Position numbers and translations under genes: made by a program. DNA of 6,584 nucleotides from the IMG/VR virus record IMGVR_UViG_2663762945_000004, positions 1 to 6,584 of that record; one strand, written 5' to 3'. Below, in pieces: positions 989 to 5,228 of the stretch (the stretch's first letter is position 1; each line of letters starts with the position of its first letter). Under the pieces are notes generated by a model. The model searched no databases, had not been told where the DNA came from, and worked only from the letters and a program-made list of their open reading frames with translations. The stretch is from a virus. Its lineage: Duplodnaviria; Heunggongvirae; Uroviricota; Caudoviricetes.

Positions 989-1546
989 TCAGCAATGAAT
1001 TTTGAGTAATTGCTCCACAGTCATATTTTTAATTGAGTTCCGGTTAACAAGAGTCCATCCCTGTTTTTCCAGATAAAACCGGAAAGTCTCCAGGGTACAG
1101 ACGAGAGCGCCATCAGGAACGGTTTCGGTGAATCTGATGTTGCCGCGTTCGTCGAAGTGAACAACCAGAGTGCGGCCATCGCCTGAAATTATTTTGTCAG
1201 TGGGTGGGGTGTTATTCTGGCACAGCTCGGCCTCCATGCGATCGAACTCAGCAATGTAGGCTTCTTTAAATGCAGCGGCTTTTTTGCCAGTGAATCCCAT
1301 CACCAGGAAAACGAAGCCGTTTTTGGTGATTTGGTACATTGGGAGTTTGCGTCCGGTTGAGTCGGTGTATTTGCTCGACACAAAATTGTGCTCAGTGAAT
1401 TTTGCTGAACAGTCCAGATTGCGAATTTTATCCAACACTCGTTCGTGGCGTTTGCCAAAGAACTCGGCGATCGCAACAGACGTAGTGACAGCGCGACCAT
1501 TTTCGATGGTTACGTCAGGGTGAGAAAGGGTAAGGGTAGTAGCCAT
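989..1546 (-). CDS. Rha-family phage regulatory protein (pRha domain), possible antirepressor-type regulator
   Basis: Translation from ATG at 1546 (GGAGG SD 7 nt upstream) gives MATTLTLSHPDVTIENGRAVTTSVAIAEFFGKRHERVLDKIRNLDCSAKFTEHNFVSSKYTDSTGRKLPMYQITKNGFVFLVMGF..., which I recognise as an N-terminal Phage_pRha-type domain. The track ORF continues in frame upstream to an ATG at 1843 (AGGTGAG SD), so the true start is ambiguous. I prefer 1546 because the pRha domain is normally N-terminal and the upstream extension contains a terminator-like hairpin. Confidence 0.7.
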   Translation of the reverse strand: MATTLTLSHPDVTIENGRAVTTSVAIAEFFGKRHERVLDKIRNLDCSAKFTEHNFVSSKYTDSTGRKLPMYQITKNGFVFLVMGFTGKKAAAFKEAYIAEFDRMEAELCQNNTPPTDKIISGDGRTLVVHFDERGNIRFTETVPDGALVCTLETFRFYLEKQGWTLVNRNSIKNMTVEQLLKIHC

Positions 1547-1715
1547 GATGGCAGCCTCCGCGATGAATTTGATTAACTCACCACCGAGGTTTTCCACGAC
1601 CATAAGGGTGGTGAGACGTACAGGGGTGGAAATACCGGTCATCACGGAACCCGGCCAGCCTTGCGGCAGCCCTGCACGCCCCACCATAATGCGAATGTGG
1701 CTGTGCTTAACGCAT

Positions 1716-1738
1716 AAAAAAACCGCCTGAGCGCGGTT
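1716..1738 (-). terminator. Putative intrinsic terminator on the minus strand (hairpin plus U-tract)
   Basis: Plus strand reads aaaaaaaccgcctgagcgcggtt. On the minus-strand transcript this is a stem AACCGC / GCGGUU (4 GC + 2 AU pairs) with a 6-nt loop, followed by a run of 7 U. The stem is short, so strength is uncertain. It lies about 170 nt upstream of the Rha start at 1546. Confidence 0.4.
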
Positions 1739-1865
1739 ATGCGCCGTGAATGATTTCGGGTTTCCACGCCCGGCACCCGTTTTATAAGGTGCAGGCGAAC
1801 TATAATTCCACCCGTTCTGGTTTTCAATAGCTACATTCAACATTTTCTCTCACCTTTCATCACCG

Positions 1866-2021: not shown

Positions 2022-2383
2022 TAAAAAGGGCGGCAGAGCAGTCACGGAGTAAAACTGATACCGCCAAACGTCACCAGAAAATTGATAACAGAGGGCGTTG
2101 CAGCGGAGTTGTCACTTAAGCGTATGGTCAACCTGACAACCCGGCGTCCTCAACGGGGGAAGGAATAACCCCGCCATACTTACCGCCGCGCCATTTCGCG
2201 GATTGCCACAACCGGAAGCGCACGGTCGAATTAAATTTAACGACAAAGTACAGAGAGACGAGCTTCTCCGTGCGTTTTCGTGTTATGCCCTGACTTTTCA
2301 GGGATATATCCTTTTCAGTAAACTGTCAGTGCCGGATTCTTATCCGTGTCCGGCGCACGCACTCTACCTCACCTGTGAATAAA

Positions 2384-2769: not shown

Positions 2770-2922
2770 TCAGTCGGAGTTTCTTGCTAACCAGCGACGC
2801 GCGCCAGCTTCGGTTTTAAACGTTTTGCTTTTGGTATACGTCATCGCGGTGAACGTACCGTCCTGGTTGGGGAACACGCCACATACCAGAGATTCGCTGT
2901 TGCCAAGATCGATAGTATCCAT
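2770..2922 (-). CDS. Small protein (50 aa from Met at 2922; in-frame ORF extends to 3003), resembles small YdaF/DUF1391-like prophage proteins
   Basis: ATG at 2922 preceded by GAGGT at 4-nt spacing. An upstream in-frame ATG at 3003 also has a GAGG SD, so the start is ambiguous. Sequence MDTIDLGNSESLVCGVFPNQDGTFTAMTYTKSKTFKTEAGARRWLARNSD; the YdaF/DUF1391 resemblance is from memory and unverified. Confidence 0.5.
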   Translation of the reverse strand: MDTIDLGNSESLVCGVFPNQDGTFTAMTYTKSKTFKTEAGARRWLARNSD

Positions 2923-3098
2923 GCTGACCTCATTTCCCCTTAACGCCGGGGTAGCGGAACAAAAACCTGCTGCATAGTTATTAAAGTTGAACCCTGCCGT
3001 CATGTTCTTACGCCTCGGGCTGGCTACTTAACCCCTGACCACTGCCTGGTAACTCGAAGTATTGCCCTGCATTCTGTGGGGCGGGGTGGGTGGCAGGT

Positions 3099-3156
3099 AT
3101 ATAATGTACTTTGTGTTCATTGTTGTAAAGTACATTTAGTACATTTTGTGTGTAAA
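3099..3156 (-). promoter_or_regulatory. Putative leftward early promoter with operator-like repeats (pL/oL analogue)
   Basis: Three copies of the 7-mer ATGTACT or its reverse complement at 3104-3110 (forward), 3129-3135 and 3138-3144 (reverse). A candidate minus-strand sigma70 promoter overlaps them: -35 TTTACA (plus 3129-3124), 17-bp spacer, -10 CATTAT (plus 3106-3101). A plus-strand TATAAT also occurs at 3100-3105. Confidence 0.35.
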
Positions 3157-3219
3157 AAAATGAGATGGGATAAAGTGAAGCACAAACCCGGAGGAAGGCG
3201 CTACCGGATTTATGCTGGT

Positions 3220-3639
3220 TTAAGAGGCTTTTTGTTTTTTCTTTCGTGCTAACTCTTCGTAAATTGCATTGTACTTCTGTTTTTTCTCTTCAAGAGTTTT
3301 TAAAAGTTCATCTGTCTCACTGTCAGGGAGCTCGTCCAGAAGGTCAATGATGATTTTTTGTCTTGGATTTAACTCCTGATAGAAACGTACCTGTCCACTT
3401 TCTTCTGTATCCTCTCCCAAAAGATAGGTTGGTGTTGTTCCTATTAGTGTTGCTAATTCCCTTAATTTCTCCCGGCGAGGAATTGTTTCGCCATTAAACC
3501 ATTTGCTAACCGCTTTTGGTGTTAATTTCATTCGACGGGCAATTTCTGCCTGCCTTCCATGTTGTTCATAACCAGCGTTTTCACAGGCTAGCGCAAGCCT
3601 ACTGGCGAACTCTTTACGCGCTTTATCTTCATGAACCAT
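3220..3639 (-). CDS. Prophage repressor, HTH XRE family (CI-like, 139 aa), no LexA-like S24 peptidase domain
   Basis: ORF-track protein has an N-terminal XRE-type helix-turn-helix (QAEIARRMKLTPKAVSKWFNGETIPRREKLRELATLIGTTPTYLLGED) and a short charged, probably helical C-terminus (EELARKKKQKAS). It is divergent from a Cro-like gene. No SD precedes the ATG, consistent with a leaderless transcript as for lambda cI from pRM. Confidence 0.85.
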   Translation of the reverse strand: MVHEDKARKEFASRLALACENAGYEQHGRQAEIARRMKLTPKAVSKWFNGETIPRREKLRELATLIGTTPTYLLGEDTEESGQVRFYQELNPRQKIIIDLLDELPDSETDELLKTLEEKKQKYNAIYEELARKKKQKAS

Positions 3640-3718
3640 AAGTTCAATGATATTCGCTCTTGAATGTACTGTCAGTTCTGTTATAGCATGTACTCAAAGT
3701 TCACATTGTGAGGGTGAT
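3640..3718. promoter_or_regulatory. Divergent promoter/operator region (pRM-like leftward, pR-like rightward)
   Basis: Two forward ATGTACT copies at 3664-3670 and 3688-3694. Candidate pR: -35 TTGAAT (3660-3665), 16-bp spacer, -10 TATAGC (3682-3687). Candidate pRM on the minus strand: -35 CTGACA (plus 3675-3670), 17-bp spacer, -10 TATCAT (plus 3652-3647), ending about 7 nt before the repressor ATG. An 11-bp perfect palindrome TCACATTGTGA (3701-3711) sits just before the cro-like SD. Confidence 0.45.
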
Positions 3719-3973
3719 ATGAACCAGAAAACACTTGAAGATGTAATCAAAACTGTTCGCGTTGCTGTTGTGGCCGACGTTTGTGGTGTCAGCCAAAGAG
3801 CAATCTATAAATGGATGGATAACGGAAAATTGCCTCGCACAGAATATACCGGCGAAACAAATTACGCTGAAAAAATCGCTCTTGCATCAAACGGATTATT
3901 TTCTGCCGATGCAATTTTAACTATTGGCAGGAATAAAACTACTACGAAAAAGCTGATGGGAGTTGATTCATGA
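3719..3973 (+). CDS. Cro-like HTH regulator, YdaS family (84 aa)
   Basis: ATG at 3719 preceded by GAGGGTG. Protein MNQKTLEDVIKTVRVAVVADVCGVSQRAIYKWMDNGKLPRTEYTGETNYAEKIALASNGLFSADAILTIG... has the Cro/YdaS-type HTH pattern. Divergent from the repressor. Its TGA stop overlaps the next gene start (ATGA at 3970-3973). The track ORF starts upstream at 3647 but lacks an SD there. Confidence 0.8.
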   Translation: MNQKTLEDVIKTVRVAVVADVCGVSQRAIYKWMDNGKLPRTEYTGETNYAEKIALASNGLFSADAILTIGRNKTTTKKLMGVDS

Positions 3974-4395
3974 AAATCAAGCATGAACACATCCGCATGG
4001 CGATGAATGCCTGGGCGCATCCGGACGGCGAAAAAGTACCGGCTGCGAAAATTACCAAAGCGTATTTCGAGCTGGGAATGACGTTCCCGGAACTGTATGA
4101 CGACAGCCATCCGGAAGCCCTGGCTCGCAATACTCAGAAAATTTTCCGCTGGGTGGAGAAAGACACCCCTGATGCGGTTAAAAAAATTCAGGCGTTGTTA
4201 CCAGCTATCGAAAAAGCAATGCCACCTCTGCTGGTGGCCCGAATGCGCAGTCATAGCTCAGCCTATTTTCGGGAACTAGTGGAGACGCGGGAACGACTGG
4301 TGAGAGACGCTGATGATTTTGTCGCAGTGGCGATCGCTGGTTTCAACCAGATGAATCGTGGTGGCCCTGCAGGAAATATTGTGGCTGTGCATTGA
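3970..4395 (+). CDS. ydaT: YdaT-family protein (CII-like regulator; family historically annotated as a putative toxin), 141 aa
   Basis: Protein begins MKIKHEHIRMAMNAWAHPDGEKVPAAKITKAYFELGMTFPELYDDSHPEALARNTQKIFRWVEKD..., which I recognise as the YdaT family of Rac-like prophages. Start overlaps the upstream stop by 4 nt, indicating translational coupling. Confidence 0.78.
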   Translation: MKIKHEHIRMAMNAWAHPDGEKVPAAKITKAYFELGMTFPELYDDSHPEALARNTQKIFRWVEKDTPDAVKKIQALLPAIEKAMPPLLVARMRSHSSAYFRELVETRERLVRDADDFVAVAIAGFNQMNRGGPAGNIVAVH

Positions 4396-4466: not shown

Positions 4467-5228
4467 ATGGCTAACGCCTGGCTCAGATTATGGCATGACA
4501 TGCCAAATGACCCTAAGTGGCGAACAATTGCCAGGGTGTCAGGGCAGCCAATTGCAACAGTGATGGCAGTGTATATCCACCTCCTGGTGAGCGCGTCACG
4601 AAATGTCACGCGAGGTCACATTGAGGTCACGACAGAAGATTTGGCAAGTGCGCTCGACGTGACAGAAGAGGTAATTGATTCAATTTTGCAGACGATGCAG
4701 GGGCGGGTACTTGATGGTGATTTAATCACTGGATGGGAAAAACGCCAGGTGCTTAAAGAGGACAACGGCAATATTTCGCAAACCGCAAAATCTCCTGCAG
4801 AGCGCAAGAGGGCGCAGCGAGAGAGGGAAAGAAAGCGGGAACAAAATGGCGATTGTCACGGCGCGTCACGAAATGTCACGCATATGTCACGACGAGTCAC
4901 GACAGATAAAGATACAGATAAAGATACAGATCAAGAAGATCAAAACACTATGGTCCATGGCGTAAAAAACGCCACGAACCAGGCAGGGGATGTTCAGACC
5001 GTCAATCTTGGTCAGCCAGCAGGCACGACACCGGAAGCCGATTCAGCGTATGCGCTGAAAGCCGATTCGGGCGCTGTGCAGCAGGTGATGACCGCAAGGC
5101 CGGAGCAATCACACCAACTGCAGCAGCCCGAAGCCGATTCCGCCATTCAGCGGGAAGCCGATCGGGTAGTCCCGGAAAACACCGGGCAGTCTGTGGGACG
5201 AGTGGATTACCGGAACTCGGGCTGGTGA
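4467..5228 (+). CDS. Replication initiator-like protein (lambda O analogue) with iteron arrays inside its coding sequence
   Basis: ATG at 4467 with AGAGGTG upstream (the track starts at GTG 4461). N-terminus MANAWLRLWHDMPNDPKWRTIARVSGQPIATVMAVYIHLLVSASRN... followed by a winged-helix-like segment (TEDLASALDVTEEVIDSILQTMQGRVL). An acidic TDKDTDKDTDQEDQ linker is encoded by a tandem repeat. Two GTCAC iteron arrays lie inside the gene, as the lambda origin lies inside O. The family name is not verified. Confidence 0.65.
   Translation: MANAWLRLWHDMPNDPKWRTIARVSGQPIATVMAVYIHLLVSASRNVTRGHIEVTTEDLASALDVTEEVIDSILQTMQGRVLDGDLITGWEKRQVLKEDNGNISQTAKSPAERKRAQRERERKREQNGDCHGASRNVTHMSRRVTTDKDTDKDTDQEDQNTMVHGVKNATNQAGDVQTVNLGQPAGTTPEADSAYALKADSGAVQQVMTARPEQSHQLQQPEADSAIQREADRVVPENTGQSVGRVDYRNSGW
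4592..4636. repeat. Iteron array 1: four GTCAC(G) direct repeats at 10-11-bp spacing
   Basis: GTCAC begins at 4596, 4606, 4616 and 4627. The units are gtcacgaaat, gtcacgcgag, gtcacattgag and gtcacgacag. Confidence 0.6.
4855..4905. repeat. Iteron array 2: five GTCAC(G) direct repeats at 10-11-bp spacing (candidate replication origin core)
   Basis: GTCAC begins at 4855, 4865, 4875, 4886 and 4896. A 21-bp segment GCGCGTCACGAAATGTCACGC is shared exactly with array 1 (4592-4612 and 4861-4881). The array is immediately followed by an AT-rich tandem repeat. Confidence 0.6.
4902..4940. repeat. Tandem 12-bp repeat (acagataaagat twice, then a degenerate third copy), AT-rich, adjacent to iteron array 2
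   Basis: acagataaagat at 4902-4913 and 4914-4925, then acagatcaagaagat. It encodes the TDKDTDKDTDQEDQ linker and is placed like the AT-rich unwinding region next to the lambda ori iterons. Confidence 0.6.

Follow-up and report, generated by a model that had tools for sequence, protein, structure and literature searches.

The window, that is, the whole 6,584-bp stretch of DNA analysed here, harbors a repressor gene with short inverted repeats on both sides that overlap predicted promoters ( Table 1 ). The genes of the predicted rightward pR operon are ordered cro, cII-like ydaT, and replication genes, and those of the predicted leftward pL operon DUF1391, DicF, C4 RNA, Rha, and exonuclease. 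PGAP gives the same 84-aa start for the Cro-like gene in close relatives. YdaT of CP-933P has been shown to behave like CII (PMC8630535). The C4 RNA scores 77.6 bits against Rfam, and the Rha-family gene matches Pfam Phage_pRha, with anti-repressor families among its PHROG matches.

Table 1. Genes, predicted promoters, and predicted operators of the immunity region (positions in the window).
Feature	Position	Strand	Sequence or elements	Placement and support
Candidate antirepressor module, pL operon	989..1691	-	C4 antisense RNA (1604-1691), then Rha-family gene (989-1546)	
First pL-operon gene, DUF1391/YdfA family	2770..3003	-		Pfam DUF1391; place matches ydfA after dicA in Qin
pL, predicted leftward early promoter	3101..3129	-	-35 TTTACA (3129-3124), 17-bp spacer, -10 CATTAT (3106-3101)	Promoter scan
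OL1	3104..3120		ATGTACTTTGTGTTCAT	Between pL -35 and -10, overlapping -10; core match, PWM 18.2
OL2	3128..3144		AAGTACATTTAGTACAT	Adjoins and overlaps pL -35; holds both reverse ATGTACT copies; PWM 18.6
Immunity repressor, 139 aa	3220..3639	-		HK022/933W-type HTH N-terminal domain and DicA-type helical C-terminal domain
OR3	3631..3647		ATGAACCATAAGTTCAA	Repressor start codon (CAT, 3637-3639) within spacer; PWM 22.1, highest in window
pRM-like repressor promoter, predicted	3647..3675	-	-35 CTGACA (3675-3670), 17-bp spacer, -10 TATCAT (3652-3647)	Scan, 10/12 matches
pR, inferred rightward early promoter	3660..3687	+	-35 TTGAAT (3660-3665), 16-bp spacer, -10 TATAGC (3682-3687)	
OR2	3664..3680		ATGTACTGTCAGTTCTG	Between pR -35 and -10; spacer bears pRM -35-like hexamer; PWM 16.4
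OR1	3688..3704		ATGTACTCAAAGTTCAC	Directly downstream of pR -10, over expected pR start; PWM 18.8
Cro-like lytic repressor, 84 aa	3719..3973	+		60% identity to HK022 Cro, E 1e-33
CII-like/YdaT-family regulator, second pR-operon gene	3970..4395	+		Pfam YdaT_toxin; PHROG 163 CII-like activator, E 3.5e-45

An earlier note on this DNA pointed to the 7-mer ATGTACT as a candidate operator half-site clustered on both sides of the repressor gene, and its count holds: the five copies at 3104(+), 3129(-), 3138(-), 3664(+), and 3688(+) are the only ones in the window. Dinucleotide-preserving shuffles of the window contained 0.47 copies on average and three at most, and none of 200 reached five. The preferred preceding A is found in four of the five copies and is missing at 3688. 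When one mismatch is allowed, 16 matches occur across the window for 13.6 expected, i.e., there is no enrichment, and ATGTACT alone therefore describes the sites poorly. The operator unit is instead a 15–17-bp inverted repeat, (A)TGWAC-N5-GTWCA(T), with 5-bp half-sites TGWAC. The pattern GWAC-N5-GTWC has five matches in the window (3106, 3130, 3633, 3666, and 3690), all confined to the two clusters, where 0.28 would be expected and no shuffle of 200 gave five or more. Position weight matrix (PWM) scores of the five sites range from 16.4 to 22.1 and the next-best window position scores 3.4, although the core columns are partly circular because the PWM and locus scans used a regular expression that came from these same sites.

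Each of the five ATGTACT copies thus overlaps what is, by this definition, a genuine operator half-site, but the 7-mer is not itself the repeat unit. The two reverse copies (3129 and 3138) belong to a single operator, OL2, and the 3129 copy ends with two bases in its unconserved spacer; with 3134 A>T in four of four close relatives, this copy is lost there though its half-site is kept. Five further half-sites of the GTTC/GAAC type, together with the whole of OR3, lie beyond the copies originally listed. The pseudo-palindromic symmetry described as A-W-GTAC-W-T is present, but it reflects merely a self-complementary GTAC core, and the operator dyad is that of the 15–17-bp repeat. No paper with the exact operator strings was found in the literature searched.

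The arrangement of the five sites is that of coliphage HK022. Site centres lie at 3112 and 3136 in OL and at 3639, 3672, and 3696 in OR, giving a spacing of 24 bp from OL1 to OL2, 33 bp from OR3 to OR2, and 24 bp from OR2 to OR1, with 500–580 bp between OL and OR. In HK022, whose operators also read TGWAC-N5-GTWCA, the centres (2208/2232 and 3007/3040/3064) have the same 24 bp and 33 + 24 bp spacing, the sites stand at identical distances from the hexamers of pL and pR and from the start of cI, and the start codon lies inside OR3. GenBank X16093 lists the HK022 sites, in order, as TGTACTTAAAGTTCA, AGTACCAATAGTACA, TGAACCATAAGTTCA, TGTACTATCAGTTCC, and TGAACCATAAGTTCA, in features labelled ‘potential’; a passage of PMC8053113 cites their experimental confirmation by Carlson & Little 1993. 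Binding of HK022 CI to neighbouring sites is cooperative, and the protein also connects OL and OR by looping (PMC8053113). OL1, which is kept in 23 distinct loci of the OL alignment, occupies the same place as the HK022 oL site 2201–2215, and the counterparts of OL2, OR2, and OR1 are the sites at 2225–2239, 3033–3047, and 3057–3071. OR3 shares its entire 15-bp core with the HK022 oR site TGAACCATAAGTTCA at 3000–3014, and most relatives have an OR3 equivalent at −8 relative to the start of the repressor gene. A third OR site at 3640–3656 (AAGTTCAATGATATTCG), extrapolated 24 bp from OR2, was rejected, since the HK022 annotation and the core pattern both put OR3 at 3631–3647, 33 bp from OR2.

HK022 differs from the window in having a weak OL3 and an extra core-pattern match just downstream of its cro, the latter a further CI operator according to PMC8053113; no equivalent of either was detected in the window (the best remaining PWM score is 3.4, and the lowest among the five sites 16.4). 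The pL operon of HK022 carries nun/cIII/kil, whereas that of the window carries DUF1391/DicF/C4/Rha.

Overlap between the ATGTACT copies and promoter hexamers on both flanks of the repressor gene, also proposed earlier, is borne out by the promoter scan and by homology to the annotated HK022 promoters. The predicted pL has the geometry of the annotated HK022 pL −35/−10, and its hexamers are kept in the OL alignment. The pR assignment rests on positional homology to the annotated HK022 pR (TTGACT ... CATAAT) and on conservation; a strict consensus promoter scan of the window did not return pR, the −10 of which, TATAGC, is without the final T. Both pRM-like hexamers are kept across 33 aligned OR regions, in which the OR2 spacer reads CTGAYA/CTGAAA. 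The predicted pRM start is the A of the repressor ATG (3639) or the adjacent base, no Shine-Dalgarno sequence is visible upstream of the gene, and the repressor mRNA is probably leaderless.

Pfam assigns the 139-aa repressor to HTH_3 as its sole family. Its N-terminal domain is 47% identical to HK022 CI over residues 4–102 (E = 6e-32), and the divergently transcribed Cro is likewise homologous to its HK022 cognate. The recognition helix, at about residues 41–48 (PKAVSKWF), is near-identical to those of HK022 and 933W CI, reading LTPKAVSKWFNGE in the window repressor and VTPKAISKWFNGE in HK022. The stretch TPKAVSKWFNG, which includes K42 and K46, is invariant among 11 aligned homologues. Similarity to DicA extends over residues 30–137 (29% identity, E = 5e-15), including the whole C-terminal domain, and PHROG 5736 matches residues 27–139. 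In the AlphaFold model, the C-terminal domain consists of one helix at 92–103 and a long helix at 106–138. An S24 peptidase domain, with its Ala-Gly site and Ser/Lys dyad, is not found in the repressor, which has only the Pfam HTH and ends at residue 139; the AG ... G[DN]SM motifs present in relatives of 220–250 aa are absent. HK022 CI, by contrast, is a 235-aa protein with an S24 autocleavage domain. The earlier description of the protein as CI-like therefore fits its N-terminal domain and fails for its C-terminal domain. Among solved structures, a sequence search with the repressor gave just a weak match to P22 C2 (E = 0.006), and a Foldseek comparison of the AlphaFold model matched generic XRE-type HTH proteins (E > 0.001 throughout), none of which shed light on the C-terminal domain.

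The operator layout is conserved well beyond this element. We scanned 33 proteobacterial loci encoding the same helix, drawn from Enterobacterales, Vibrio, Haemophilus, and Pseudomonas, plus two Firmicutes controls. In 29 of the 33 loci, the repressor start is preceded or overlapped by three core sites (about −65, −41, and −8), in agreement with the expectation that the motif would recur across homologous prophages; the Firmicutes controls have no such sites. Most of these loci also have a pair of sites spaced 24–25 bp apart and located 0.5–3.1 kb downstream, including loci in which additional genes (HigBA, an AAA ATPase) have been inserted in the interval. In a variant with 89% repressor identity, the half-sites show 0 differences in 50 bases compared with 47 in 165 other non-coding bases (Fisher p = 6e-7). 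Unrelated prophages match the window sequence only up to about position 3091, immediately left of OL, which marks a boundary of the module. Database entries submitted as phage genomes, Tritos and vB_EcoS-666R9 among them, contain the immunity module at 97–99.5% identity, and 1047 of 5426 complete E. coli genomes (about 19%) carry the 711-bp region over at least 80% of its length.

Several other characterized systems share parts of this organization. The N-terminal domain of the 933W/phi24B CI is 51% identical to the window repressor over residues 1–73, and its 15-bp sites, two in OL and three in OR, have the same G-(A/T)-A-C-N5 core. Passages of PMC3317979 report that operator positions 2–5, G-(A/T)-A-C, set binding of the 933W repressor, with T favoured at position 3; that K42 and K46, both kept in the window repressor, are modelled as base contacts; and that binding to adjacent sites is reportedly non-cooperative. 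The differences are an outer operator base of C/G in 933W (CGTAC...GTACG) and T/A in the window, a helix that starts SSKG rather than TPKA, and the S24 domain of the 933W repressor. Lambda resembles the window in its 17-bp pseudo-symmetric operators, a promoter-proximal pair spaced 24 bp centre to centre, divergent pRM and pR, OR3 over the pRM start, and a leaderless cI-type transcript (predicted in the window). Its operator sequence is unrelated, however; the window has only two OL sites and a repressor missing the S24 domain, and OR2 encloses the pRM −35 in the window but abuts it in lambda.

The size of the repressor, in contrast, is that of DicA, Gifsy GfoR/GtgR, and RacR, short repressors of about 135–150 aa with no Ala-Gly/S24 cleavage module. 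Repressors of the DicA/Gifsy/RacR class are inactivated by antirepressors (PMC3121763, PMC10448788), many of them under LexA control, and GfoR acts as a dimer (PMC3121763). The Qin region of DicA has the same gene order of cro-like gene, divergent repressor, pL, DUF1391, and DicF. Helix and operator vary together in this comparison, as DicA has the same architecture but another recognition helix and another operator, Oc, TTGTTAGTCATAACTAACAA (PMC3441716). DicA operator specificity was rejected for the window: sites in the DicA intergenic region and in dicBp are of the TTAG/CTAA type (PMC3441716), those in the window TGWAC-N5-GTWCA. By description, the PaaR2/YdaS/YdaT switch of CP-933P in E. 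coli O157:H7 is also similar, with a short CI analogue, a leaderless mRNA, a divergent Cro-like YdaS, a CII-like YdaT, sets of operators at both OR and OL, and, between repressor and OL, an additional gene cassette (PMC8630535); HigBA occupies this place in the Salmonella relatives L004 and L005. The operator consensus of the CP-933P switch differs, consisting of GTTTAGTAA inverted repeats, and PaaR2 octamers are reported (PMC8630535).

We consider it highly probable that the left cluster is OL, and the right cluster OR, in the immunity region of a lambdoid prophage whose specificity is of the HK022 type; dimers of the 139-aa repressor would be expected to bind the sites. The bipartite oL/oR control suggested in the earlier note appears well supported by the match in sequence and geometry to HK022, by CI and Cro homology, and by the layout in about 30 diverged loci; the support comes from comparison and from experiments on the homologues HK022 and 933W. 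The five 17-bp sites, with the consensus ATGWAC-N5-GTWCAT, would each be read by the recognition helix PKAVSKWF, in which K42 and K46 would contact the G-W-A-C core of each half-site. With OL1 and OL2 over the −10 and −35 of pL and OR1 and OR2 over pR, occupancy of the sites would shut both lytic operons. OR3 overlies the predicted start of the repressor's own transcript, an arrangement that would result in negative autoregulation, and Cro would be expected on the same sites. We infer repressor binding and cooperativity, like the promoter positions, the leaderless start, and the antirepressor route, from such comparisons. Among the points that count against this explanation, OR2 encloses the predicted pRM −35, which is hard to reconcile with activation as in lambda and does not explain how repressor synthesis is maintained.

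The sites could be real and yet be used mainly by another protein, such as Cro alone, the YdaT/CII-like activator, or the Rha-family regulator, with the 139-aa protein reading something else. Cro is an HK022 Cro homologue, lambdoid Cro proteins bind the same operators as their repressors, and binding by the 139-aa repressor is itself a prediction from homologues. This alternative is nevertheless very unlikely, given that the helix is near-identical to its counterparts in the CI proteins of HK022 and 933W, the operators of which have window-type sequence (PMC3317979). The sites also track the repressor N-terminal domain, YdaT being swapped for other genes in loci L004 and L007, and CII-type activators read direct repeats at pRE rather than inverted repeats on pL and pR.

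It is still harder to credit that the repeats are promoter hexamers in AT-rich context, alike by chance in two similar promoters and without operator function. Each cluster does overlap a predicted −35 or −10, and the lack of enrichment of the one-mismatch 7-mer is in keeping with such an origin. Half-sites off the hexamers are equally conserved, however, namely the distal half of OL2 (3139–3143), the downstream half of OR1 (3699–3703), and OR3, and about 30 diverged loci preserve both the dyad symmetry and the 9-bp spacing of the core. Substitutions are located in spacers rather than half-sites. The flanking DicF, DUF1391, and YdaT, typical of cryptic Qin/Rac-like elements, would fit a decayed cryptic-prophage relic with inherited sites that have no present regulatory role. 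We regard this as very unlikely in view of the nearly identical module in deposited phage genomes, the intact repressor and cro frames, the frequency of the 711-bp region among complete E. coli genomes, and the visible constraint on the half-sites.

The operator reading also bears on induction. A short DicA/Gifsy-type C-terminal domain without S24 leads us to expect induction by way of an antirepressor and not by RecA-stimulated self-cleavage, and the prophage probably needs an antirepressor to be induced. LexA boxes (CTGT-N8-ACAG, at most one mismatch) number two in the window for 1.9 expected, neither at a predicted promoter. The C4/Rha module of the pL operon might act as the antirepressor of the 139-aa repressor. 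No Rem/GfoA-type antirepressor was identified within the window, and the antirepressor could be located outside it.

An HK022-type DNA-binding domain is usually paired with an S24 C-terminal domain, which provides strong cooperativity, looping, and RecA-triggered cleavage. We tentatively suggest, as a possibility that may well prove wrong, that the window represents a natural domain swap, in which an HK022-type DNA-binding domain and its five-operator array are run by a DicA-type C-terminal domain and induction now depends on an antirepressor, for which the Rha-family protein of the pL operon is a possible candidate. If so, the paired 24-bp geometry would have been retained without the S24 cooperativity surface. 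With the −35 of a presumably leaderless pRM enclosed in OR2, the repressor would then either purely auto-repress or help RNA polymerase from the opposite DNA face, like CII. A module of this kind in about one-fifth of complete E. coli genomes could also show cross-reactivity toward HK022 and related phages, in the form of shared immunity or of cross-talk between repressors.

The repeats themselves are an operator type familiar for many years from coliphage HK022; the observation is correct but ordinary and adds no new regulatory element. Less ordinary is the short DicA/Gifsy-type C-terminal domain of the repressor where an S24 peptidase would be. What results is an exact predicted map of the operators and promoters of an immunity module that about 19% of complete E. 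coli genomes carry, that also occurs in inducible phages, and whose pL operon bears DicF and other host-affecting genes. Because the module is tied to the specificity group of HK022 and 933W, with its already measured rules of binding, whether it shares immunity with HK022, how a short repressor that is non-cleavable operates an array usually served by an S24-domain CI, and which antirepressor induces it become testable.

The heptamer ATGTACT occurs five times in the 6584-bp window, at 3104, 3664 and 3688 on the plus strand and at 3129 and 3138 on the minus strand. These are exactly the copies listed in the earlier note, and none of 200 dinucleotide-preserving shuffles reached five (mean 0.47, maximum 3). 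The proposal that these copies are operator half-sites is supported, but the unit itself had to be redrawn. Because the enrichment vanishes once a single mismatch is allowed (16 matches versus 13.6 expected), the data suggest that the heptamer is not the true unit. Repeat finding extended three of its copies to ATGTACT-N4-GTTC, and GWAC-N5-GTWC cores are found in five places in the window and nowhere else in it (0.28 expected; five reached in 0 of 200 shuffles). The repeated element is thus a 17-mer of the form (A)TGWAC-N5-GTWCA(T), and the five heptamers make up half of its ten half-sites, with both reverse copies lying within the single operator OL2. OR3 is an addition to the earlier list, which overlooked it because its two halves are both GAAC/GTTC-type. 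A position weight matrix built from 127 sites of other lineages gives the five sites scores of 16.4–22.1 and the next-best window position 3.4; the comparison is partly circular, since the pattern that picked the training sites also constrains the core columns.

Coordinates of the proposed operators, promoters, genes and RNAs in the window
Feature	Position	Strand	Details
C4 antisense RNA	1604-1691	-	Rfam 77.6 bits, above gathering score
isrK	1716-1792	-	Rfam 65.4 bits, above gathering score
DicF	2028-2079	-	Rfam 76.7 bits, above gathering score
DUF1391 gene	2770-3003	-	left of OL
pL (predicted)	3129 to 3101	-	TTTACA-17-CATTAT, promoter scan
OL1	3104-3120		ATGTACTTTGTGTTCAT
OL2	3128-3144		AAGTACATTTAGTACAT
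Repressor gene	3220-3639	-	139 aa; Pfam matches HTH_3-type only
OR3	3631-3647		ATGAACCATAAGTTCAA
pRM-like promoter (predicted)	3675 to 3647	-	CTGACA-17-TATCAT, promoter scan
pR	3660-3665, 3682-3687		TTGAAT, 16-bp spacer, TATAGC; assigned by homology
OR2	3664-3680		ATGTACTGTCAGTTCTG
OR1	3688-3704		ATGTACTCAAAGTTCAC
Cro-like HTH protein	3719-3973	+
YdaT/CII-like protein	3970-4395	+

The best-supported reading of this region, judged from sequence, is a lambdoid immunity switch of HK022 specificity. Among phage records, tblastn aligned the repressor with HK022 CI (47.5% identity, residues 4–102) and with the CI proteins of 933W/phi24B (50.7% identity, residues 1–73). In pairwise BLASTP, its N-terminal domain is 47% identical to that of HK022 CI (E 6e-32), and the Cro-like protein is 60% identical to HK022 Cro (E 1e-33). 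The HK022 record (GenBank X16093) annotates the pL and pR hexamers together with "potential repressor binding sites" in oL (TGTACTTAAAGTTCA, AGTACCAATAGTACA; centres 2208/2232) and in oR (TGAACCATAAGTTCA, TGTACTATCAGTTCC, TGAACCATAAGTTCA; centres 3007/3040/3064). The sites of the window share their sequence type, spacing and offsets, with centres 24 bp apart in the OL pair and 33 and 24 bp apart in OR, and one annotated HK022 site is identical to the 15-bp core of the window OR3. In both phages the first OL site is overlapped by the pL -10 and the second abutted by the pL -35. On the right, the final base of the pR -35 coincides with the first of OR2, the pR -10 falls in the gap separating OR2 from OR1, and the cI start codon occupies positions 6–8 of the OR3 15-mer. 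The element is of a known kind, HK022-type operators having been annotated since 1989.

An extra core site is present in HK022 and its closest S24-type relatives (L008, 3323; L019, L023 and L024, at -332, -338 and -345 from the repressor start). It lies about 270 bp beyond OR1, directly after cro, and has no counterpart in the window. This is probably the CI operator reported about 300 bp downstream of OR in HK022 (PMC8053113).

The phi24B/933W operators have the same G(T/A)AC-N5 core but a C/G outer base. Affinity for the 933W operator is set by positions 2–5, G-(A/T)-A-C, with T preferred at position 3; K42 and K46 of the recognition helix sit on these bases in a structural model, and the mutants S41A and K46A have been made (PMC3317979). 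K42, K46 and the entire TPKAVSKWFNG peptide are invariant in an alignment of 11 homologues, and the recognition helix of the window repressor spans residues 41–48 in an AlphaFold model.

Contigs whose repressors are 89%, 65% and 62% identical have the same operator arrangement, as does the contig of a Raoultella S24-type CI with 62% identity over the aligned N-terminal part. A wider scan (one genome per species, queried with the recognition-helix peptide) returned 35 loci. The motif, which the earlier note had proposed to seek in homologous immunity regions, is retained there in its layout: 29 of 33 proteobacterial loci have three core sites, at roughly -65, -41 and -8 relative to the start of the repressor (Enterobacterales, Vibrionaceae, Pasteurellaceae, Pseudomonas, Salinicola and one Pseudooceanicola MAG). 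Most of these loci have an additional pair of sites, 24–25 bp apart, 0.5–3.1 kb downstream. Core sites were absent from two Firmicutes loci, which share only the short peptide. Half-sites and pR hexamers are conserved in the aligned OR regions, as are a TATAAT-like pRM -10 directly adjoining OR3 and a CTGAYA/CTGAAA hexamer within the OR2 spacer. The variant with 89% repressor identity differs from the window at 0 of 50 half-site positions (five of them also within repressor coding sequence), at 4 of 25 in the spacers and at 43 of the remaining 140 intergenic ones (Fisher p = 6e-7). At position 3134, an A>T change in all four close relatives destroys the 3129 heptamer and leaves the AGTAC half-site intact.

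Several of these loci have features of their own. Two Salmonella loci have a HigB/HigA toxin-antitoxin pair (L004, 3053-3720; L005, 3088-3755) inserted between the repressor gene and OL, and the Raoultella locus has an AAA-ATPase gene there (L007, 3308-4750), mirroring the paaA2-parE2 arrangement of CP-933P. In the Haemophilus loci the OL pair is joined by a third site 29 bp away. Records assigned to the alphaproteobacterial Pseudooceanicola MAG (L039) and to a Streptomyces assembly (L020, a 1-kb contig titled Streptomyces sp.) also contain HK022-type repressor and operator modules; the Streptomyces contig is nearly the same as enterobacterial HK022-like sequence and probably represents contamination.

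For many unrelated E. coli prophages and phages, the match to the window reaches only to about 3091, in the DUF1391 leader, and similarity is lost exactly at the beginning of OL. Judged by this sharp mosaic junction, 3091/3092 is the left edge of an exchangeable immunity cassette. Of 5426 complete E. coli genomes, 1047 contain at least 80% of the 711-bp region, which makes the module very common, and Tritos is one of the phage isolates that have it as well. The Tritos record labels the YdaT/CII-like gene "Rha family" and annotates Cro as 108 aa (TRITO_34; L001 4698-5024, window 3647-3973), starting from an ATG among the OR sites, beside OR3. This longer annotation is probably wrong: the start at 3719, which PGAP uses and which gives 84 aa, comes with a GAGGGTG ribosome-binding site and an alignment to the N-terminus of HK022 Cro. 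Further to the right, iteron-like GTCAC(G) repeats recur about every 10 bp in two blocks, 270 bp apart (4591-4619 and 4853-4900), inside the replication-initiator gene (4467-5228); they include an exact 21-bp duplicate, and a tandem 12-bp ACAGATAAAGAT x2 is found at 4902-4925. The region is probably the phage origin.

In the proposed switch, repressor dimers on OL1/OL2 and OR1/OR2 would block pL and pR, OR3 would cover the point where the repressor's own transcript, probably leaderless, begins, and Cro would act on the same sites. Repressor binding, where the promoters lie, leaderless initiation and possible cooperativity are all inferred. The promoter scan did not return pR, and it placed the pRM-like start on the A of the repressor ATG, about 33 bp downstream of the OR2 centre. 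In lambda OR2 abuts the pRM -35, whereas here it encloses the predicted -35, a misfit to the lambda model, so that a filled OR2 might either repress or help pRM. Adjacent operators are bound cooperatively by HK022 CI, according to the statement in PMC8053113 that cites Carlson & Little 1993, and OL-to-OR looping by HK022 CI has been shown in vivo (PMC8053113).

Most relatives are S24-type CI proteins of 220–250 aa with AG and G[DN]SM motifs. Pfam found no S24 peptidase domain in the 139-aa repressor, whose short, helical C-terminal domain is homologous to that of DicA of prophage Qin (29% identity over residues 30–137, E 5e-15); AlphaFold models a disordered linker (77–87), a helix (92–103) and a long helix (106–138). 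DicA differs from the window repressor in both recognition helix and operator (PMC3441716), a contrast that illustrates how the two change together. DicA, RacR and the repressors of Gifsy cannot be cleaved; antirepressors such as Rem, GfoA and GftA inactivate them (PMC3121763, PMC10448788).

No LexA box was found in the window. The minus strand left of OL also carries a 128-aa ORF, DicF, isrK, C4 RNA, a Rha-family gene, DUF1482 and an exonuclease fragment. Directly downstream of DicF on this strand is a perfect 22-bp inverted repeat (arms 1866-1887 and 2000-2021, 112 nt between) that might fold into a long hairpin in the RNA, perhaps one at which RNase III processes the 3′ end of DicF. The Rha-family gene (989-1546) directly follows the C4 antisense RNA and matches anti-repressor PHROGs, an arrangement resembling c4/ant in the immI region of phage P1. 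The two are a candidate antirepressor route, by which the non-cleavable repressor might be induced. What is less ordinary in this proposed switch is the pairing of a short, DicA-type repressor with an operator array normally run by an S24-domain CI.
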